Of a stretch of DNA of 12,815 nucleotides, positions 2,760 through 12,595 are shown piece by piece (the stretch's first letter is position 1; the number at the start of each line of letters is the position of its first letter). Location: contig JAWCLG010000020.1 of NCBI GenBank assembly GCA_038851075.1, forward strand, positions 1 through 12,815. Reading direction: 5' to 3'. A program made the translations under genes and the position numbers. The notes below the pieces were generated by a model. That model did no database searches, was not told the origin of the DNA, and was given only the letters and a program-made list of their open reading frames with translations. The DNA comes from Candidatus Hadarchaeales archaeon. Its GTDB lineage: Archaea > Hadarchaeota > Hadarchaeia > Hadarchaeales > Hadarchaeaceae.

Positions 2760-3179
2760 CTAGTCCCTCATGAGTTCGTCCACGAGCCTTTTGCAGCTGC
2801 TCAGCACCAGCTCTGCCTGCCTGACAGCCTTTGGTGCGGCATCCCTGAAGAAAGAAACATCAAGCCCCTTCTCAAATCCGTAGCCCGCCAGCCCCCTCTT
2901 CTCCGCCAGCTCTGCGAGTATCCGGACGATCTCATCCAGATTCTGTCTGAACCACCTGGGCATCCTGCCCTCGACCTCTCTCATCGCTGGCCCGGGATCG
3001 TGCGTCTTCGGGTACTCGACCCCCAGGACCGCAAGCGCTGCCTTGGCGGCATGCTCGGCGCACATCTGGGCGCAGTACACCGCGTCATCATACCTCTTTC
3101 CCCTGAGGGCATCCCGGGAGCTGAGGAGCCATCTCTCCGCCCTCCCTACCATCAGAGAAGCGAGCTCCTTTCTGCTCAA
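2760..3179 (-). CDS. HEPN domain protein (COG2250-like), toxin-type partner of the MNT
   Basis: 139 aa, helical, with YDDAVYCAQMCAEHAAKA and YPKTHD motifs typical of this HEPN class. Its TTG start overlaps the MNT stop (TTGA, 3176-3179). Confidence 0.88.
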   Translation of the reverse strand: MSRKELASLMVGRAERWLLSSRDALRGKRYDDAVYCAQMCAEHAAKAALAVLGVEYPKTHDPGPAMREVEGRMPRWFRQNLDEIVRILAELAEKRGLAGYGFEKGLDVSFFRDAAPKAVRQAELVLSSCKRLVDELMRD

Positions 3180-3892
3180 ATTTCCTCAGCCCCCAGAACC
3201 CAGAACCATCTCCCATTCATGAGCTCCACCCTATATGAATTGCTCTCCATCAGCCTCGCCCTCAGCCTCTCAGCGGTTTCCCTGAACTCACCCCTGTCGT
3301 ATATCACAATTCCGTCGGCCACTGCGTCAAGCAGTATCCGCGGCATCTTCCCGAGGTCGGGGGGAGAGAGGGGATAATGCTGGATCTTTGGGTAGAAGCC
3401 CTCCGCCAGCGCCCTCGAGTATTCCGGGGCTTTTCTCAACTCAAGCTCGACTTCCACAAGCTCGTCCAGGGCGCGGATTGGGTCTTCGGATCCCTCCGCG
3501 ATCACCAGCAGGTCAATGTCGCTGTCCTTTCTCCAGTCACCCCTTGCAACAGATCCGAAAAGCACGAGGGATCTCAGGCGATCGCCGAGCCTTTCAATCA
3601 GGAGCTCAAAATACCTCCGCATGAGATCCCGGTAAAGCGGGTGAGGAATCCTGTCCAAGTCCGGAACTGGGGCTCCCATGATCTCCTTTATCTCCGCAAG
3701 CTTCTCGGCGACCTTCCTTCCCCTATCTGTTAACTCATATCCTGCTTCCACCGCCCTCACCAGCCCCATTCCCACGCCCTCCTTGAGGCAGGAGGCAAGC
3801 GTTCTCCGGTTCCTAACTACCTGGAGAAGGGAGCCGAAGCTCCTAGCGCCAGCCAGAAGGCCAACCAACAATTTTTCCAGGTTTTCCTTCAT
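3176..3892 (-). CDS. Winged-helix / minimal nucleotidyltransferase (MNT) fusion, antitoxin-type
   Basis: LVLFGSVARGDWRKDSDIDLLVI is the Pol-beta-type GS..DxD signature. The N-terminal ~70 aa ends in a wHTH wing (GLVRAVEAGYELTDRGRKVAE). Coupled to the HEPN gene. Confidence 0.88.
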   Translation of the reverse strand: MKENLEKLLVGLLAGARSFGSLLQVVRNRRTLASCLKEGVGMGLVRAVEAGYELTDRGRKVAEKLAEIKEIMGAPVPDLDRIPHPLYRDLMRRYFELLIERLGDRLRSLVLFGSVARGDWRKDSDIDLLVIAEGSEDPIRALDELVEVELELRKAPEYSRALAEGFYPKIQHYPLSPPDLGKMPRILLDAVADGIVIYDRGEFRETAERLRARLMESNSYRVELMNGRWFWVLGAEEI

Positions 3893-3923: not shown

Positions 3924-4333
3924 AATATATCAAAAGCCTGTGGCGCTTGGCGCGGTTTCCACTAAGAACAGGCGACCGGTGAACGGGCTGACTTCAGGCG
4001 CGGCGCTGCCGCGTGAAAGGGCAACATGCAGTACTGGGGCGACACAAGGGCATGCTGGCTATTAGATAAGAGGATCGCCGCCCTGAGGGACCTTTGCCAT
4101 CCTCGGCTTTCCAGATCTCCGCGGCTGAGATACCTGAACGCTCCTCGGCTGTTTCTAGGCCCACAAAAACATGAATGCCCACCGTCGTCGCAAGCTATTA
4201 CAGAAAGAACCGGCAAAACGAATATTGCCGCGCCTGCCATGTGCCCTGGAAGCCCGGCGGCGATGACCTAGGTCCCACCGGGCGCGGCACATTGTCAACA
4301 GGGTGAGATTTTCTGGAAGGGCCTGTCTGATCT

Positions 4334-4387
4334 CAGAAAGGTATTAAAATAGGTGAACTGATGAAATCTGATTGCCTGGATGAGGTA
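4334..4387 (+). promoter_or_regulatory. Putative BRE/TATA promoter and RBS of the aminotransferase operon
   Basis: CAGAAAGG-TATTAAAATA at 4334-4351. GAGGT at 4382-4386 precedes ATG 4393. Confidence 0.45.
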
Positions 4388-4389
4388 AT

Positions 4390-6819
4390 TTGATGATACC
4401 GGTATGCGAGCCAAAGCTTGGGGCCAAGGAATTGGAGTATGTCATAGACTGCATAAAGACTAACTGGATATCCTCGAAGGGAAAGTACATAGATGAGTTT
4501 GAGAGGAGGTTCAGCGAATACTGCGGGGCGAAACACGGCATAGCGGTCTGCAACGGCACCGTGGCCCTTCATCTGGCCCTGGCGAGCATGGGGATAGGAC
4601 CCGGCGATGAGGTAATATGTCCCGCCTTCACCATGATAGCAACCGCCAACTCGATCACTTACACTGGCGCAAAGCCCGTGCTTGTTGACTCAGAGCGGGA
4701 GACCTGGAACATGGACCCATCCAAGATCGAGGAAAAGATCACGGACCGAACGAAGGCCATCATGGTCATGCACACGTATGGACATCCCGTCGACATGGAC
4801 CCTGTCCTGGACATCGCGGAGGATCACGACCTCTACGTCATCGAGGACGCGGCCGAGGCCCACGGCGCGGAGTACAAGGGAAGGAGAACCGGGGCTCTGG
4901 GGGACGCGGGCTGCTTCAGCTTCTACGCCAACAAGATAATCACAAGCGTGACCGGAGATGAACCGCTGATGATTATGGATGAATCGGGCCTTGTGCATGT
5001 TACCAGAGCATGTGAGTTCATCGACAGATTCTTCTTGCCCGGTGAAACAGGGGAGGTGCCAATTGAGGGATTCTACGCCCCGGTATTTGATAGGAAAGAT
5101 CACTCGATGAAATGGTCAAGGATATCCTCCTTGATACGCCATCGCGCGCCTGAGAGCGTATATAGGGTACACCTTCAGAAGGGGAGGACCGTCACGGTGA
5201 CCGGGAGCCATTCGCTGTTTGTAAAGGAAGGCGCAGAGATAACCACCAGGGAAGCCTCCAAGCTGAAGGCCGGGGATCTGGTGGCTGTTCCCATCCGCAT
5301 ACCACCAGCTCGGTACATGACTGATGTGGACATCATTTCCCTTTTTTTGAATTCCCTGAAAAGGGAAGATCTAGAAAAGCTCCGCGCGTGCATGGGGGTT
5401 TTGGATGAAAGACTGCCAGCCGGAAAGCATTACACCAGCGTAACGCTTTCGAAGATCAAAAGCGCCTCTGATCTTAAGATATGGATCTTGGCAAAAGGAA
5501 GGGGAATCGGGGGAGGAAGCGCAAAAATTCGTCTGCCTGCAAGATTGCCCATAACAAGGGAACTCTGCAGGCTCCTGGGGTATTATGCCGCGGAGGGTTC
5601 CATTTCGGGGAGGGGGACCTCGGTTGCCTTTACATTCGGCCCTGAGGAGCACCATTTGGTTCAGGACTGCGTTCAGTGCATCAGATCCACCTTTCCTGAC
5701 TCATCCGTGAGGGTCTACAGGGGAAACAGCAAAATGACCGTCACGGCAAATGGAAAGGTCATTGCCCTCCTGTTGGAAACGCTCATCGGAAGAGGCGCCA
5801 GGGAGAAACATCTGCCCTACTTCATCTATAACATTCATCCCTCACTCCAGCTCGAATTTCTTGACGCATATGTGAGGGGGGACGGATGCTCGAGGACCAT
5901 AAAGGGCAGCGACAGGATAGAGGTCAAAACCGTCAGCAAGGATCTGGCAATCGGGATTCACTATCTTCACCTGATGCTAGGCCTGTCGAACTCAGTGGAG
6001 GTGGGGCCGGCTGGGACACGGAACTTTGGAGAATATATCTCCCACACGGCCGAGATGTACAAGCTTTCGCTTGGGGGGATAAAGGGAACGAGTGTCCTTA
6101 ACGTGGAACCTACGCACAAAAACCTGGAAGAACACAACAGGATAAATGAAATCTCATTTTTAGAGGTAACCGGGGTCGAAGAGGTGAAACCTGCTACGCC
6201 CTACGTGTATGACATCAGCTGCCCGCCCGATGAAAACTTCGTGGGAGGATTTGGCGCGGTATTCCTGCACAATACCGGTGAAGGGGGAATGGTCGTGACA
6301 AACGACGATGAAATAGCAAGGATGTGCAGGCTGCTCCGCGATCAGGCTTTCGAGCCAAAGCGCTTCCTGCATCGCTACGTTGGGTTCAACTACCGCATGA
6401 CCAACCTGCAGGCTGCCATAGGAGTCGGGCAGATGGACCTGATAGATGAGTCAGTTGAAACGCGGAGACGCAACGCCGTGCTGTACAACTCCCTTCTGAA
6501 GGACGTGGAGGGGATAACTCTACCGCCAGAGGCCCCCTGGGCGAAGAACGTTTACTGGATGTACACGGTCTTGGTGGAGGACTCCTTTGGGATGGGCAGG
6601 GACGAACTTATGGCTTATCTGAAGGAGAAGGGAATTGACACTCGCTCCGCCTTTTATCCGATCCATGTTCAGCCGGTTTATCAGAGGCAGTACGAGGGAG
6701 AGAGATACCCTGTCGCAGAAGAACTCGGAAGAAAGGGGATCAATCTTCCATCCGGCAACACGCTGACAAAAGATCAGATTAAATACGTGGCGGAAACAAT
6801 CGCATCCGCAAGAAGGTGA
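4390..6819 (+). CDS. DegT/DnrJ/EryC1/StrS PLP-dependent sugar aminotransferase (perosamine-synthase-like), intein-containing precursor; spliced product about 366 aa
   Basis: Family motifs NGTVALHLAL, VIEDAAEAHG, FSFYANKIIT|TGEGG (PLP Lys182), GFNYRMTNLQAAIG and INLPS. Removing residues 186-628 restores a normal-length enzyme. Likely start is ATG 4393. Confidence 0.95.
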   Translation: MMIPVCEPKLGAKELEYVIDCIKTNWISSKGKYIDEFERRFSEYCGAKHGIAVCNGTVALHLALASMGIGPGDEVICPAFTMIATANSITYTGAKPVLVDSERETWNMDPSKIEEKITDRTKAIMVMHTYGHPVDMDPVLDIAEDHDLYVIEDAAEAHGAEYKGRRTGALGDAGCFSFYANKIITSVTGDEPLMIMDESGLVHVTRACEFIDRFFLPGETGEVPIEGFYAPVFDRKDHSMKWSRISSLIRHRAPESVYRVHLQKGRTVTVTGSHSLFVKEGAEITTREASKLKAGDLVAVPIRIPPARYMTDVDIISLFLNSLKREDLEKLRACMGVLDERLPAGKHYTSVTLSKIKSASDLKIWILAKGRGIGGGSAKIRLPARLPITRELCRLLGYYAAEGSISGRGTSVAFTFGPEEHHLVQDCVQCIRSTFPDSSVRVYRGNSKMTVTANGKVIALLLETLIGRGAREKHLPYFIYNIHPSLQLEFLDAYVRGDGCSRTIKGSDRIEVKTVSKDLAIGIHYLHLMLGLSNSVEVGPAGTRNFGEYISHTAEMYKLSLGGIKGTSVLNVEPTHKNLEEHNRINEISFLEVTGVEEVKPATPYVYDISCPPDENFVGGFGAVFLHNTGEGGMVVTNDDEIARMCRLLRDQAFEPKRFLHRYVGFNYRMTNLQAAIGVGQMDLIDESVETRRRNAVLYNSLLKDVEGITLPPEAPWAKNVYWMYTVLVEDSFGMGRDELMAYLKEKGIDTRSAFYPIHVQPVYQRQYEGERYPVAEELGRKGINLPSGNTLTKDQIKYVAETIASARR
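4945..6273 (+). mobile_element. Intein with LAGLIDADG homing endonuclease (443 aa)
   Basis: Block A SVTGDEPLMI (Ser1), block B VTVTGSHSLF (TxxH), block C LLGYYAAEG, block E FLDAYVRGDG, block F YVYDISC, block G VFLHN followed by Thr+1. It interrupts the conserved KIIT-TGEGG motif exactly. Confidence 0.95.
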
Positions 6820-6823
6820 ACAC

Positions 6824-7837
6824 ATGCCGGACATGTCATTTGCGGTTGTAGGGTGCGGAAGCTTCGGATCACGGAGGGTGAGCGCGCTCAGGAAAATCGG
6901 CGCGAAGATCGCGTGTTTGGTGGATACGAACAGAGAGCTCGTCTCCAAGATGGCCTTGGAGGTCGGCTGCGATTACTACACGGACTATCTTGAGGCTCTC
7001 AGGAGAAAGGATTTGGACTGCGTCGTGATCGCAACACCGAACAAGTTCCACGCTCCTATATCGATAGCGGCAATGGATGCCGGGATGCACGTGCTCTGTG
7101 AAAAGCCTCTAGCGAGAAATCCGGAGGAGGCCAGGGCGATGGTGGAGGCCTCAAGGCGAAACGGGGTTTTCCTAAAGACCGGATCCAACCTCAGGTACTT
7201 CTCGAACGTCAGGAAGGCCAAGGAGCTTGTGGACGCAGGTGCGATAGGAAGGCCCCTCTTCATCAGGGGATGGATAGGGCACGACGGTAAGAAGGTCCTT
7301 CACACCTGGAACGCTGACAGGGAGATGGCTGGAGGGGGAACGATGCTGGACAACGGGGCCCACATCCTCGATCTCTTCCGCTGGTTCATCGGGGACTTCT
7401 CGGAGTGCACGGGACACGTGGCGACGCTTCACATGCCGATAGAGGTTGAGGACAACGGCATGGCCATATTCAGGGCCGAGGACGGGCGAATGGCGTTCAT
7501 CCAGTCGTCATGGACGGAGTGGTCAGGGTACATGTACATGGAGATTTACGGGTCCGAGGGTTCCGTGATAATCGACAACAGGGGGGAGAGGATAGTGAAC
7601 TCGGGCAAGTGGGCAGTGACGAGCACCACCCTCTTGACATCCAAGGACGGGACACGACAGGTGTTTGACTACTCAGCGGAGCCTCCCCAGTCCTACGAGC
7701 TGGAGCTGAAGGACTTCATGGAGCGCGTGGAAAGCGGGGAGCAGCCGATGGCCAGCGGACATGATGGGATGAGGGTTGTGGAGATGGTCAATGCGATCTA
7801 CGAGTCATCCAGAGCCGGACGCACGGTCAAACTTTAA
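6824..7837 (+). CDS. Gfo/Idh/MocA family NAD(P)-dependent oxidoreductase (probable sugar dehydrogenase)
   Basis: Rossmann AVVGCGSFG, VIATPNKFH, HVLCEKPLA and GGGTMLDNGAH motifs. Starts 4 nt after the aminotransferase stop, with AAGGTGA as RBS. Confidence 0.92.
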   Translation: MPDMSFAVVGCGSFGSRRVSALRKIGAKIACLVDTNRELVSKMALEVGCDYYTDYLEALRRKDLDCVVIATPNKFHAPISIAAMDAGMHVLCEKPLARNPEEARAMVEASRRNGVFLKTGSNLRYFSNVRKAKELVDAGAIGRPLFIRGWIGHDGKKVLHTWNADREMAGGGTMLDNGAHILDLFRWFIGDFSECTGHVATLHMPIEVEDNGMAIFRAEDGRMAFIQSSWTEWSGYMYMEIYGSEGSVIIDNRGERIVNSGKWAVTSTTLLTSKDGTRQVFDYSAEPPQSYELELKDFMERVESGEQPMASGHDGMRVVEMVNAIYESSRAGRTVKL

Positions 7838-8027
7838 ATCCGCCGCGGACAACCCGAGCAAGAAGATCGGGCGGGGAGTACTGCCAAGTCGCGCTCCAAC
7901 ATAATCGAGGTCGTGCCTGCTGAGCAGGATCTTCTTCTGGAGTCCTTTCTCGGAAAATCGCAAGCCCGATAAAAACAAGCCAAAAACGAAGTTAACAGGC
8001 CTCAAGATGATGGCAAACTTAAACATT

Positions 8028-8140
8028 ACCCCCCACATAAAGTTTCCTTTAGGGCGGGCTTGATGGCATGCTGAGTTTCTCGCTTTAGTCAGTTCCGCCT
8101 CCATAGACCATGGATAAAGGAGGCGGTAAAACGTGCCTCA
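8028..8140 (+). ncRNA. Candidate structured non-coding RNA in the IS110 left end (bridge-RNA-like)
   Basis: Nested stems: TAAAG/CTTTA (8038-8051), TGA-T-GGCATG/CGTGCC-TCA (8061-8140), CTGA/TCAG (8071-8092) and CCGCCTCC/GGAGGCGG (8095-8126). They lie immediately upstream of the recombinase RBS. Confidence 0.35.
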
Positions 8141-8155
8141 GGAGGTGAGAAGGAA

Positions 8156-8413
8156 ATGAAGCATGTCGGCCTGGATGTCCACAGGCAGGCATGTCATGCA
8201 ACGGTGATGGACGAAACCGGGCGAATAGAGAGGCAGGAGCGGTTCAAGAATTCACGGAGGGAGTACGAGCGGTTCTCCAGAGACATCCCGGAGGCCAGGG
8301 TCGCAATGGAGGCGAGCTGCTGCTGGCAGCCCGTGTACGAGCTGCTCGGGCGGGCTGGTCACAGCGTGAAGCTGGCCCACCCAAAGCGCACCTACTTAAG
8401 CAATATTTCCTAA
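8156..8413 (+). pseudogene. Truncated IS110-family transposase/recombinase (N-terminal DEDD RuvC-like fragment)
   Basis: HVGLDVH (D7), VAMEAS (E52), WQPVYELL and VKLAHP match the IS110 N-terminus. Strong RBS GGAGGTGA at 8141-8148. Similarity and high GC stop abruptly near 8392, far short of a full-length enzyme. Confidence 0.85.
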
Positions 8414-8419
8414 ATTTTG

Positions 8420-8481
8420 GCATATATGCTATTTTATTCAAAAATGCTATCATAATAGCAAACTTTTTAAATATTTGCTAT
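8420..8481 (+). promoter_or_regulatory. AT-rich promoter of the ATPase gene with repeated TGCTAT half-sites
   Basis: TTTAAATA at 8466-8473, about 26-33 nt before ATG 8499. TGCTAT at 8427, 8445 and 8476; ATAGCA at 8455. Confidence 0.55.
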
Positions 8482-8498
8482 AATGGTGGGATGGTTGC

Positions 8499-9830
8499 AT
8501 GTCCGTCCCAACCCTAGATGATATCAAGGATTACAACCCATGGCACGTTGGCGAAAATTTTGAGGTCCCGCCGCTTAAAAGAGATGCATATGCGACGATC
8601 AAAAATGCCGTTGAGAGGAGAAAGTTCATCGTGGGCATAGTGGGGCTGAGGCGTATCGGAAAAACCGTGATGATGAAGCAGATTGGGAACGAACTCGACG
8701 GGGACAGGTTCTTTTTTTCTTTCGAGGAGGACAGGTTCGCCAACTATGAATCGCTGAAATTCGTGATAGATACCTTTTTAAGGATGGGCGAAAAGCCGAC
8801 GATATTCCTGGACGAGATTGGGAGAATTCAAGGATGGGCGGGCCTGCTCAAGAAATACCATGACTTGGGAATGGCCCGTTTTGTGATCTCCGGGTCTTCA
8901 TCGCTCCACATAACAAGGGGGAAGGAAAGCCTGGCGGGGAGACTGATGGAGTACGTTCTGCCCCCCTGGCAGTTCAATGAGTTCCTCAAGCTGAGCGGAT
9001 TCAACAACGTCGAGATGTACACCCTCCACTTGGATCGTATCGAATCCATATACTTAAGATGGAAAAATACCGGCGTTGACCACACGGGCGACTTTTTAAG
9101 AAGGGGGAGTTTTCCTGAGCTTGGGGGTATTCAGGATGACCGTGAAATAAAAAAATACGTTAAAAATACCACGGTTGAGAAAATCGTCTTCGACGACATC
9201 CCATCGATATTCCCGGTTGAGGACAAGAGCAAGCTTTACGATGTTATGTGCTACGTCGCCAGGGAGAGCGGGTGCCTGTTCAAGCCATCACACCTCGGAG
9301 AAGCCCTCGAGATCTCAAAGGATACTGTAAAGAAATACCTATTCTACCTCCACCACTCATACTTGGCAGAACTCCTGCCGGTTGAGGGCAGCACGATAAA
9401 GAGCTTCAGAAGGCCCAAGAAGGTGTACGCCTCATGCGCCCCGATCTCCTACTCCCTTTCTGATCAGTACAATGAAGCTAGGCTGGTGGAAACCGCGGTG
9501 GCCGACAAGATGAAGAACTGCCTGGCGCAGGGCGGGGAAGTATTTTTCTTCAGGGACGCCCAGAAGCACGAGGTGGACTTCACGGGCCCGCTGGTGGTCG
9601 AGTGCAAGTGGAAAACCACAATCACAGGCGATGACCTGCGCCCGCTCCTTTACTACATGAAAAAGAGAAACGTGAGGAGCTCTATAGTTGTCGGGAAGGA
9701 ATTCGAGGTGAGAAAGTACGGTGGAAGAGAGATATACGTCTTACCTCTGGCGCTTTTCCTCCTCCTCAAACCTCCAGCGAACACAAGTTCATCGAAGCCC
9801 ACTATTAATAGAAATAGTGTAGATTGTTGA
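8499..9830 (+). CDS. COG1373-type ATPase (AAA_14 plus DUF4143-like C-terminus with HTH and PD-(D/E)xK-like motif)
   Basis: YNPW start, Walker A GLRRIGKT, Walker B IFLDEIG, ISGSSS, ESLAGR and GSFPE motifs. HTH-like LGEALEISKDTVKKYL, and C-terminal EVDF...VECKW. Confidence 0.9.
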   Translation: MSVPTLDDIKDYNPWHVGENFEVPPLKRDAYATIKNAVERRKFIVGIVGLRRIGKTVMMKQIGNELDGDRFFFSFEEDRFANYESLKFVIDTFLRMGEKPTIFLDEIGRIQGWAGLLKKYHDLGMARFVISGSSSLHITRGKESLAGRLMEYVLPPWQFNEFLKLSGFNNVEMYTLHLDRIESIYLRWKNTGVDHTGDFLRRGSFPELGGIQDDREIKKYVKNTTVEKIVFDDIPSIFPVEDKSKLYDVMCYVARESGCLFKPSHLGEALEISKDTVKKYLFYLHHSYLAELLPVEGSTIKSFRRPKKVYASCAPISYSLSDQYNEARLVETAVADKMKNCLAQGGEVFFFRDAQKHEVDFTGPLVVECKWKTTITGDDLRPLLYYMKKRNVRSSIVVGKEFEVRKYGGREIYVLPLALFLLLKPPANTSSSKPTINRNSVDC

Positions 9831-9834
9831 TGCT

Positions 9835-10974
9835 ATGAGGATAGCCTACGTCCACGATGCGGTTTACCCTTTCGTGAAGGGCGGCGCGGAGAGGCGGATG
9901 TACGAGCTCTCCAGGAGGCTGGCGAAGCGCGGGCACGAGGTCCATGTCTTCGGGATGAGGTGGTGGGGCGAGGAGCCCGAGATCGAGCGGGAAGGAGTGC
10001 ACCTTCACGGGGTATGCAGGGCCATGCCGCTCTACTCCAGGGGAAGGAGGTCGATCAGGGCGGCTTTGGCGTTTGCGATGAGCGTCCTGCCCCATCTCAC
10101 AAGGGAAAAATTTGACGTCATAGACTGCTACCAGGCACCATACCTTCACGCGTTTCCGGCTAAGGCAGCGGCGGCTCTCAGGGGGACACCCCTACTGATC
10201 ACGTGGCATGAGGTCTGGCGCGGATACTGGGGAGAGTACCTGGGAGGACTGGGGGTTGTGGGGAGGGTCATGGAAAAGGCAATTCTGCTTGGGATGGCAG
10301 ACAGGGTCATAGCGGTATCTGATCAGACGAAGGACGATCTGATCTCCCTCGGGGTCAACGCTGAAAGGATAAGCATTGTCCCGAACGGAATTGATCTCGA
10401 GGAGATATCTAAAATGCCGCCCTCTGCCGAGAGGCTCGATGTGGTTTACCTGGGACGGTTGATCAGGCCTAAAAACGTGGACGTGCTGCTCAGAGCAGTT
10501 GCCATCCTCAAGAGGGAATTTCCCGGGCTGAGGGTGGGGATAATAGGGGACGGACCGGAAAGGAACTTCCTCGAGAATCTAGCTAGGGAGCTAGCAATCG
10601 ACAAAAACGTGAAGTTCTTCGGGTTCGTGGAGAGATACGAGGACGTGATAGCCCTCATGAAATCCTCAAAGGTATTCGTTATCCCGTCAACACAGGAGGG
10701 GGGTGCGAGCATAGTGACCCAGGAGGCCTACGCCTGCGGACTTCCTGTCATTGCGGTGGACCATCCCCTAGGCATAGACAAAAGATTGATCTTGGAGGGA
10801 GAGACCGGATTTTTCGTGAAGCTGTCGCCAGAAGCTATAGCGGGTAAGATTAAATTGCTAATGGAGGACGAAGAACTCAGGACCAGGATGAGCGCAGACG
10901 CATTAGAGTTCTCAGTAAATTACGACTGGGGGAAAATAGCCAGTATGGTTGAAAATGTGTATTCCAGAATATGA
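9835..10974 (+). CDS. Glycosyltransferase family 4 (GT-B, retaining)
   Basis: KGGAERR, GHEVHV, TWHE, IAVS, VPNGID, GRLIRPKNV, IIGDGP and PSTQEG...EAYACGLPVI motifs. Confidence 0.93.
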   Translation: MRIAYVHDAVYPFVKGGAERRMYELSRRLAKRGHEVHVFGMRWWGEEPEIEREGVHLHGVCRAMPLYSRGRRSIRAALAFAMSVLPHLTREKFDVIDCYQAPYLHAFPAKAAAALRGTPLLITWHEVWRGYWGEYLGGLGVVGRVMEKAILLGMADRVIAVSDQTKDDLISLGVNAERISIVPNGIDLEEISKMPPSAERLDVVYLGRLIRPKNVDVLLRAVAILKREFPGLRVGIIGDGPERNFLENLARELAIDKNVKFFGFVERYEDVIALMKSSKVFVIPSTQEGGASIVTQEAYACGLPVIAVDHPLGIDKRLILEGETGFFVKLSPEAIAGKIKLLMEDEELRTRMSADALEFSVNYDWGKIASMVENVYSRI

Positions 10975-11050: not shown

Positions 11051-12595
11051 ATGTCTGATGCCGAGAAATACGCAAAACGATTGACGAAAGGCAGTGGAAT
11101 GATATTTGGGGCCTTGGTGATATCCGGCATCACCGGTCTTGGTTTGCGCATGTTTTTAACCAGAACTTTCACGCTTTCTGATTATGGGCTACTTTATCTC
11201 GTTTTTTCTTGGATTTCTTTCTTCACAATTTTCAGGGACCTTGGGCTCAACTCAGCGCTGAGCAGATTTATCCCGGAGTTTATGGCAAAAAATGAGTTCG
11301 GCAGGATAAAATCGCTGATTCTGCTTGTAACCGGTATCCAAGTTCTTGTAACACTTCCGGTCGCTATTTTCCTGATGGTGTTTTCGGATCAGATCGCGGT
11401 TGTCATGACCGGAACGGCATCGGCCTCATTTATTATTAAGATATTTACCATGTGGTTTTTCCTCATGCTATTTTTTCACGTGTTCAGGTCTGCCTTTCAG
11501 GGTTTTCAAGACCATGTTCCATACTCCGCAATGGAAATACTCTATATTACGCTTACATTCTGTTCAGTATTCATTTTCGTCGTCTGGCTTGGGATGGGAA
11601 TCAATGGGGCCGCGCTGGGATATCTCTCAGCCGTGCCAATACTTATCACGGTATGGCTCGTGCTTTTCTACAAAAGACATAAAAATGTCTTTAAAGCGGC
11701 CCCCCTTTTTGAAAGGGAAGTGACCAGCAGAGTTCTGCGGTATTCGCTGTTCATTTTTATCGGGGGCCTAGGAGGTGTAGTTCTTGGATACATGGACACT
11801 ATTATGATAGGTATGTTCCGAACAACTGCCGAGGTCGGCCTGTATCAGGCGGCACAGCCGATAACCGCCCTCATCTCATACTTCCCGGCCGCTCTGGGAA
11901 TAGTGCTCCTGCCGATGATCTCCGAGATATGGGCCAAAAATAGGAGGGAGACGCTTTCCCGAGCCCTCCACTCAATCCTGAAATTCTCATCGTTGATAAT
12001 CGTCCCAGCGGTTTTTGTGCTTATAGCCTTCCCTGACGTTGCCCTTCGATCCCTCTTTGGATCCGAATACGTTCTAGCCTCAGTAGCTCTTCAGATATTG
12101 ACATTTGCTTTGGTTCTAAACACGCTTCTCGCGGTCCTACAGCAGGTTGCGGCAGGAATCGAGCAACCGATGCTCACAACCTTGACCGTGCTCTGCATGA
12201 GTAGTATGAATCTTGTGGGAAACCTGATACTGATACCGCCTTATGGTATCGTCGGGGCCGCCGTGACAACTTTAGCCTCTTTGATCTTCGGTCTGGCCCT
12301 GCTATCCCTGCTTTTGAGAAAATTTGTTAAATTCGCAATTCCCGTGGTCCCGATCCTCAAAATGTTAATCGCAGGAATTTTTACCACAGCCACGATAATG
12401 TTTATGAAATCGGTCATAAACATAAATCCCTGGTGGCTGGAGGCGCTTGTTATTGTGCCACCGTCTCTGATCCTCTACTGCGTGATCGTTTTAACGACCA
12501 AGGTTCTCTCGCCAAAGGACCTGGTGCTTCTGGGCAAGGTCGTGCCGCTACCTGGGAAGATTTTTAGAATTATGGAGAGGATGGCTGGAAAATAG
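11051..12595 (+). CDS. Wzx/MOP-family oligosaccharide flippase
   Basis: 514 aa with many hydrophobic segments. DYGL, DLGLNSALSRF, MDTIMIG, EVGLYQAA, LLPMIS and LIPPYGIVGAA motifs. Confidence 0.92.
   Translation: MSDAEKYAKRLTKGSGMIFGALVISGITGLGLRMFLTRTFTLSDYGLLYLVFSWISFFTIFRDLGLNSALSRFIPEFMAKNEFGRIKSLILLVTGIQVLVTLPVAIFLMVFSDQIAVVMTGTASASFIIKIFTMWFFLMLFFHVFRSAFQGFQDHVPYSAMEILYITLTFCSVFIFVVWLGMGINGAALGYLSAVPILITVWLVLFYKRHKNVFKAAPLFEREVTSRVLRYSLFIFIGGLGGVVLGYMDTIMIGMFRTTAEVGLYQAAQPITALISYFPAALGIVLLPMISEIWAKNRRETLSRALHSILKFSSLIIVPAVFVLIAFPDVALRSLFGSEYVLASVALQILTFALVLNTLLAVLQQVAAGIEQPMLTTLTVLCMSSMNLVGNLILIPPYGIVGAAVTTLASLIFGLALLSLLLRKFVKFAIPVVPILKMLIAGIFTTATIMFMKSVININPWWLEALVIVPPSLILYCVIVLTTKVLSPKDLVLLGKVVPLPGKIFRIMERMAGK

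Follow-up and report, generated by a model that had tools for sequence, protein, structure and literature searches.

A probable selfish homing intein in the active-site motif of a DegT-family aminotransferase from a Hadarchaeales archaeon

We analysed a 12,815-bp stretch of DNA, hereafter the window, which is the whole of contig C20 in a genome assembly of a Candidatus Hadarchaeales archaeon (1.0 Mb, 29 contigs, 88% complete). At positions 4390-6819 of its forward strand the window carries a gene for a DegT-family nucleotide-sugar aminotransferase whose coding sequence is interrupted, in frame, by an intein. Translation gives a single uninterrupted frame of 809 codons. Residue numbers below count from the TTG at 4390; the true numbers are probably one lower, because the ATG at 4393 yields the MIPVCEP N-terminus of homologues and so appears to be the likelier start. 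Against Pfam, the precursor matched DegT_DnrJ_EryC1 (E = 1e-126) in two stretches that meet at about profile position 180, the first covering profile positions 3-180, and it also matched Intein_splicing (1.1e-16) and LAGLIDADG_3 (2.9e-07), and all three matches exceed the curated cut-offs. The N-extein (4393-4944, forward strand; 184 amino acids [aa] counted from the ATG) ends in SFYANK-IIT. The C-extein (6274-6819, forward strand, stop codon included) begins with TGEGGMVV, in which the first threonine is the Thr+1 nucleophile. Between them lies the intein (4945-6273, forward strand), a 443-aa element of class 1 with a nested LAGLIDADG homing endonuclease, according to Pfam, NCBIfam, comparison with orthologues and an AlphaFold2 model.

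The N-extein aligned from end to end with Caulobacter GDP (guanosine diphosphate)-perosamine synthase (3BN1/3DR7; E = 6.5e-71), which is its nearest solved structure, and the host has the (F/Y)xxNK active-site lysine motif of DegT proteins. K182 (codon 4933-4935, forward strand) aligns with the lysine of FGNKIIT in 3BN1/3DR7, and the same position is an alanine in entry 3DR4. The lysine at this position is reportedly K186, the residue that forms the Schiff base with pyridoxal phosphate (PLP), and 3DR4 reportedly the K186A variant (Cook et al. 2008). A preliminary description of the locus had placed the insertion three residues after the Schiff-base lysine, and the alignment agrees with that placement. 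Neither LegC, PseC nor any other named NCBIfam sugar-aminotransferase equivalog was reached: the best, LegC, has a cut-off of 420 bits, against which the precursor scored 367.5 and an intein-less orthologue that is 90% identical (genome G024) scored 389.1. Because no named cut-off was reached, we give the host only a broad name based on sequence, that of a perosamine-synthase/LegC-like nucleotide-sugar aminotransferase.

The limits of the insert could be fixed by comparison with uninterrupted genes. A scripted check placed the insert between S186 (nucleotide [nt] 4945) and N628 (nt 6273) of the precursor, followed by TGEGG. We then compared the 809-aa protein with 41 related genomes, the window's own included, and found intein-less orthologues of 81-90% identity in five genomes of the same family (G024, G008, G009, G002 and G016). 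In all five, the matches to residues 2-185 and 628/629-809 abut on the DNA, within frames of 365-433 aa. As the two halves meet there without a gap, the insert is exactly residues 186-628, and a spliced product would be colinear with the normal enzyme. The insert alone matched Intein_splicing (2.8e-17) and LAGLIDADG_3 (6.6e-08) in Pfam, again above the curated cut-offs, and both NCBIfam intein models passed (intein_Nterm, 29.2 bits with a cut-off of 24.5; intein_Cterm, 26.1 bits with a cut-off of 15.6).

To judge the conservation of individual residues we used an alignment of the window intein with nine others from the same DegT site (n = 10); all coordinates in this paragraph are on the forward strand. 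Block A (SVTGDEPLMIM, 4945-4977) opens with the nucleophile Ser1 (4945-4947), which is serine in nine of the ten inteins and cysteine in the tenth. Block B holds the TxxH motif T86-G-S-H89 (5200-5211), with H89 invariant. The first LAGLIDADG motif (LLGYYAAEGS, 5572-5601) contains the predicted catalytic Glu217, and G212, A216, E217 and G218 are invariant; the second (FLDAYVRGDGC, 5857-5889) contains the predicted catalytic Asp313, and G312, D313 and G314 are invariant. Lys288 (5806-5808), between the two motifs, is likewise present in all ten, as is P291. Blocks F and G (PYVYDISC ... FGAVFLHN, 6199-6273) supply Asp423, His442 and Asn443, and Y422, D423, H442 and N443 are invariant; the His442-Asn443 codons occupy 6268-6273 and the Thr+1 codon 6274-6276. 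Altogether 20 positions are invariant, among them the catalytic ones except Ser1. The insert therefore has what defines a class-1 intein (Ser1, TxxH, the block F aspartate, the terminal His-Asn and Thr+1) and a two-motif LAGLIDADG endonuclease in which each motif ends in an acidic catalytic residue that all ten sequences keep. The preliminary description had called a full-length homing intein of 443 aa with these same splicing elements, and its coordinates proved exact to the base.

Structural comparison pointed the same way. The nearest solved protein by sequence is PI-PkoII (2CW7; E = 4.8e-28), the polymerase intein of Thermococcus kodakarensis (2CW7/2CW8). An AlphaFold2 model of the window intein, built on the ten-sequence alignment (mean predicted local distance difference test score, 85.0; predicted template-modelling score, 0.86), also had PI-PkoII 2CW7 as its best structural match (E = 3.2e-31; template-modelling score, 0.74), and the further top matches, TliVMA, PhoVMA, PI-PfuI and PI-SceI, are all inteins with the same three-part Hint and LAGLIDADG build. 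On this model, the intein has a Hint fold with the build of a homing-endonuclease intein. PI-PkoII likewise has a Hint domain split by a two-motif LAGLIDADG endonuclease, and its blocks B, F and G and both of its LAGLIDADG motifs (LLGYYVSEG and FLEGYFIGDG) align with those of the window intein. The two differ in length (537 versus 443 aa), share only about 22% sequence identity and reside in different kinds of host: that of PI-PkoII is a polymerase, whereas that of the window intein is a PLP-dependent sugar aminotransferase, which is neither a polymerase nor an ATPase.

Our preferred explanation, to which we assign a probability of about 88%, is that the DegT insert is a selfish class-1 intein that bears a LAGLIDADG homing endonuclease and occupies its host's most conserved active-site motif (FYANK-IIT↓TGEGG; the arrow marks the insertion point). 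The gene would be translated as an 809-aa precursor, in which Ser1 would attack the preceding peptide bond (an N-O acyl shift), the N-extein would be passed to Thr+1, and cyclization of Asn443, assisted by His442, would free the intein. Ligation of the exteins would leave an enzyme of roughly 365 aa, colinear with its intein-less orthologues. The endonuclease domain of the freed intein would cut intein-less copies of the motif, and repair would copy the intein in (homing). We infer both activities, splicing and DNA cleavage, from the sequence, and the precursor is plausibly inactive until the 443-aa domain has been removed. Four features fit a selfish element in an active phase of its cycle: (i) sporadic spread, (ii) intact endonuclease motifs, (iii) a jump in similarity at both junctions, and (iv) identical flanks. 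The genome holds four further inteins with LAGLIDADG domains, in TFIIB, topoisomerase VI subunits B and A, and RtcB (C27 1-2412, C21 5218-12115 and C3 103065-104972), which marks a lineage with circulating homing inteins.

The similarity jump was seen first within the assembly itself. Contig C23 carries a second DegT copy (L029), of which the first 248 codons are present (7908-8653) before the contig ends. Its N-extein (185 codons) is 85.6% identical to that of the window in nucleotides and 96% in amino acids, with 60 synonymous and 10 non-synonymous codon differences and the final difference 34 nt before the junction; over the 63 codons of intein that follow, one of 189 nt differs (99.5% identity). 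The contrast between intein and extein is significant for nucleotides (Fisher p = 5e-10) and for synonymous codons (p = 1e-9). At the other junction, the comparison came from L040, a contig end in a metagenome-assembled genome (MAG) of 'Candidatus Hadarchaeum sp.': over its final 190 nt, the intein there matches the window at 96.3% identity, compared with 84.4% for the C-extein and 75.5% for the DNA downstream (Fisher p = 5e-6 for nucleotides and 7e-5 for synonymous codons). The 30-nt flanks on each side of the insertion are identical among the intein-bearing loci, as co-conversion in homing would produce, and every one of the 12 intein-less relatives examined carries synonymous differences in this stretch. 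On C23, the upstream gene (5655-7601, reverse strand) encodes a surface protein 65% identical to the window's counterpart, and a HEPN/nucleotidyltransferase gene pair lies in between in the window but is lacking from C23. C23 and C20 thus hold diverged versions of one locus.

Metagenomic data gave a comparable picture. The window stretch was found in nine hot-spring metagenome runs from three studies, and all four runs whose contigs we aligned, from two studies, contain it. In one run (X1), shared intein pieces are flanked by two variants of the N-extein, which break off at 4941, and two of the C-extein, which begin at 6303; in another (X2), contigs bridge each of the junctions. The shared intein pieces have a word depth of 13.3 and 12.7, and the flank variants 6.5-8.6 each, as two copies of the intein would give; depth is not copy number, and we did not rely on it. 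Many contig joints leap over about 1.4-1.9 kb at 80% likeness, but their sides are only 21-45 nt long, and we read them as other organisms' DegT genes and not as intein-less alleles. An intein-less form is weakly hinted at by a third run (X3), where one joint from 4940 to 6273 with TAC amounts to an exact 1329-nt deletion and reads IIT-TGEGG, in a single contig with a 29-nt side.

That the intein is far more alike between loci than the exteins are indicates that it moved recently among hot-spring Hadarchaeota-like archaea. Several points weigh against this reading. C20 and C23 could be two paralogues of one genome or two strains binned together. Of the other two copies of the intein only 191 and 190 nt are known, in each case from the end of a contig, and a contig broken within a repeat may have been extended wrongly, which bears on both C23 and L040. 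L040 matches the window perfectly over the 144 nt that surround the junction, and a chimeric join is possible there. Finally, the Logan contigs used for the metagenome runs are 31-mer assemblies, in which rare variants are dropped and mis-joins within identical stretches are possible.

Within the phylum, the distribution of the intein is sporadic. We searched 66 genomes with a junction query of 51 extein and 90 intein residues, and the other 65 showed no intein at this junction; only the two loci of the window's own genome span it. Part of the query was matched in 35 of the 66, either by ordinary DegT genes of 360-450 aa or, for the intein part, in other hosts. When the search for the intein's close relatives was widened to 185,579 species genomes, it returned 39 pattern matches and one confirmed locus, which is L040. 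The MAG that holds L040 and the window have the same genomes as relatives, to judge from identical contig coordinates, which most likely places the window's organism in the Hadarchaeota. Two scans of metagenome contigs for the DNA of the closest protein relative, P0002, yielded no confirmed locus.

In protein databases, by contrast with the rarity that the preliminary description had supposed, inteins at this DegT site proved common. Among the best 120 of 3,422 relatives of the precursor, 14 carry an intein, 13 of them at this same site and one at another. Two of these 13 are of the Ser1/Thr+1 type with LAGLIDADG and eleven are Cys1/Cys+1 inteins with a different middle domain. We also took the best 150 representatives of 50%-identity clusters and examined 14 of the long ones: ten carry a same-site intein, so that at least 10 representatives do, and the remaining four are tandem DegT fusions. 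The JGI pipeline labels such proteins 'transaminase/intein/homing endonuclease'. What did stand of the earlier claim is that the host is uncharacterised: our literature searches found no paper describing a DegT intein. A term search in the main text of Novikova et al. (2015; PMC4760082) likewise turned up none; the supplementary host tables of that study may list one. The site is thus widely used in the databases, with no describing paper found.

The same-site inteins fall into distinct groups. One group (for example P0002, P0004, P0125, P0149, P0179, P0195, P0245, P0260 and P0268) shares the insertion three residues after the lysine (K+3; within one residue either way where the boundary cannot be fixed by eye), the LAGLIDADG domain and, mostly, Ser1 with Thr or Ser at +1. 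Only P0002 is close; the others reside in divergent DegT hosts, two of which have histidine in place of the lysine. P0002 (JGI, 1200 aa) is 89% identical to the window in the C-extein and 70% in the intein at the amino acid level. A further intein in P0002, about 400 aa long and with Cys...His-Asn/Cys ends, separates HTYGHP from DMDP and marks a second site in this enzyme, some 50 residues ahead of the lysine. The two histidine-bearing hosts are P0245 and P0268 (PSHTIT and PAHQM), with the LAGLIDADG intein at the equivalent junction; their motifs resemble those of sugar 3-dehydratases. A second group (P0006, P0011, P0012, P0014, P0016, P0021, P0022, P0024, P0037, P0050, P0053, P0132, P0189 and P0212) also has a DegT host and the same junction, but differs in its cysteine nucleophiles, in the cysteine at +1 of the host motif and in an unrelated middle domain, with inteins of about 395-407 aa. 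In P0006, we found no LAGLIDADG match and only a weak one to DUF559, a Vsr-like nuclease (E = 1.6e-4; a single stretch that fails alone). The Cys-type inteins may bring a different class of homing nuclease to the same target. At least two unrelated intein/nuclease types use the site.

The same-site LAGLIDADG inteins of other DegT subfamilies are only 26-30% identical to the window intein, and those of FtsH, topoisomerase VI-B, GyrB, HerA and aCPSF1 are 24-29% identical. As the same-site inteins are no closer than inteins of unrelated hosts, the K+3 site has probably been invaded repeatedly. In the uninterrupted motif of the 120 best relatives, the +1 residue is Thr in 100, Cys in 3 and Ser in 3; a splicing nucleophile would thus always be on offer within highly conserved DNA, which may explain the site's popularity. 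A third DegT intein site lies at around residue 80 of the window protein, after PTF and before (T)MIATANS, where P0003 (897 aa) and a gene of a same-family genome (G006, contig C4, 3407-6076) carry a LAGLIDADG intein of the Ser1/Thr+1 type; the K+3 site of G006 is without an intein.

FYANK-xxT followed by (T/S/C)GEGG is thus a much-used intein landing site in DegT aminotransferases, across divergent subfamilies. Most reviews stress replication proteins as intein hosts, a range that a PLP-dependent glycan-synthesis enzyme broadens. The DegT locus also captures homing as it occurs naturally in an archaeal phylum without cultivated members, with near-identical intein ends in exteins about 15% different and close relatives free of the intein. 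Being derived from a thermophile, lacking a catalytic cysteine (Ser1/Thr+1) and having an apparently intact endonuclease, the intein is also a possible source of a new meganuclease specificity or of a redox-insensitive splicing tool. The general understanding of inteins is left unchanged by these points. Another sugar-pathway host turned up in the searches: P0287 (1128 aa), of the NDP (nucleoside diphosphate)-sugar epimerase/dehydratase family, with a LAGLIDADG intein 26% identical to that of the window. UDP (uridine diphosphate)-glucose dehydrogenase is among the metabolic intein hosts named in a review (PMC2874743). The host of that intein in Methanocaldococcus jannaschii resembles ours in being a sugar-nucleotide metabolic enzyme and not a replication protein, and differs in enzyme family and cofactor; the comparison is by host only.

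We considered whether the intein might serve its host. Ser/Thr-dependent splicing is likely to be temperature-dependent, and could be strongly so, as these are the weaker nucleophiles. Beside the PLP lysine such splicing might, whether accidentally or through co-option, place the supply of amino sugar for the surface glycan under thermal control, in which case one element would gate both glycan loci. We regard this idea as very improbable. A conditional switch, in which a co-opted intein gates that supply by temperature, redox state or PLP, we likewise consider very improbable. Such a switch would profit from the position of the site, as a delay in splicing next to the PLP lysine would withhold activity, and the organism is from a hot spring. 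Conditional splicing is, moreover, documented for other archaeal and bacterial inteins (PMC5790916, PMC6195587 and PMC7360933). However, neither the five close orthologues nor, at this junction, any of the phylum's 65 other genomes has the intein, and a useful regulator would be expected to be retained. Intact endonuclease motifs and a near-identical intein in diverged loci have the look of a mobile parasite, and temperature dependence alone, in a hot-spring organism, is no regulation. The chemistry of the splice site argues in the same direction: with Ser1 and Thr+1 as nucleophiles, a trap based on a catalytic-cysteine disulfide, redox state or zinc or another metal is impossible, there is no catalytic cysteine there that could act as a sensing device, and Cys23, the lone cysteine near the N-terminus, is a serine in the C23 copy. 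Of the two alternatives left side by side in the preliminary description, parasitism of a conserved motif or a conditional switch, pure parasitism is accordingly favoured, by the sporadic distribution, the intact nuclease and the greater similarity of intein than extein, and the switch found no support.

Decay of the element is more doubtful still. Here the intein would be splice-dead or the gene a dying pseudogene, with the cell relying on another aminotransferase, and the genome does have three other weak DegT-family matches (on C1, C9 and C4). These are distant, however (E = 1e-9 to 1e-5 versus 1e-78), the 809 codons contain no stop or frameshift, and all catalytic residues are kept. We regard the gene as alive, judging from its open frame and from the preponderance of synonymous differences between the extein copies (60 versus 10). 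An assembly artefact, in which metagenome mis-assembly joined the intein to the DegT gene, has next to no probability: the window is a short MAG contig and two related contigs break within the intein, but the insertion is in frame with codon-exact boundaries, public-run contigs of two studies cover the intein and bridge both junctions, and the independent JGI protein P0002 shares the architecture.

The neighbourhood of the intein's host gene fits a surface-glycan cluster. Immediately downstream, a GFO/IDH/MocA oxidoreductase (6824-7837, forward strand; Pfam E = 8.3e-29 and 1.3e-26, with no NCBIfam equivalog cut-off reached) would form a sugar-modification pair with the aminotransferase. It is followed on the same strand by a gene for an AAA_14/DUF4143 ATPase (8499-9830), a GT4 glycosyltransferase (9835-10974; Pfam Glycos_transf_1, 4.3e-37) and a Wzx-type polysaccharide flippase (11051-12595; Pfam Polysacc_synt, 8.5e-29), so that the ATPase gene lies between the oxidoreductase and the glycosyltransferase. 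On the reverse strand, between the surface-protein and DegT genes, is the HEPN (2760-3179) and nucleotidyltransferase (3176-3892) pair (2760-3892), which is toxin-antitoxin-like. The similar arrangement on C23 is without it, and the pair looks like an insertion.

Two smaller elements lie upstream of the DegT gene, in a window where Rfam and ARAGORN found no RNA gene. The first, at 4227-4296 on the forward strand, is GC-rich, measures 70 nt and has a long closing stem. Its counterpart on C23 is 96% identical, a conservation above that of the coding sequence. Of 45 other genomes of the family, 3 contain the element as well (78-87% identity), and there it lies away from the contigs for which DegT matches were listed. 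It had no Rfam or tRNA match and its fold z-score is only -1.6; a small RNA and a regulatory site are both possible identities. The second is a C-box/D-box-like pair (UGAUGA ... CUGA) at 4347-4378 on the forward strand, directly ahead of the start codon. Its Rfam match, to a snoRNA (small nucleolar RNA), is weak (E = 0.056) and falls far short of the gathering threshold. The pair is partly conserved on C23 and could represent a kink-turn or have arisen by chance.

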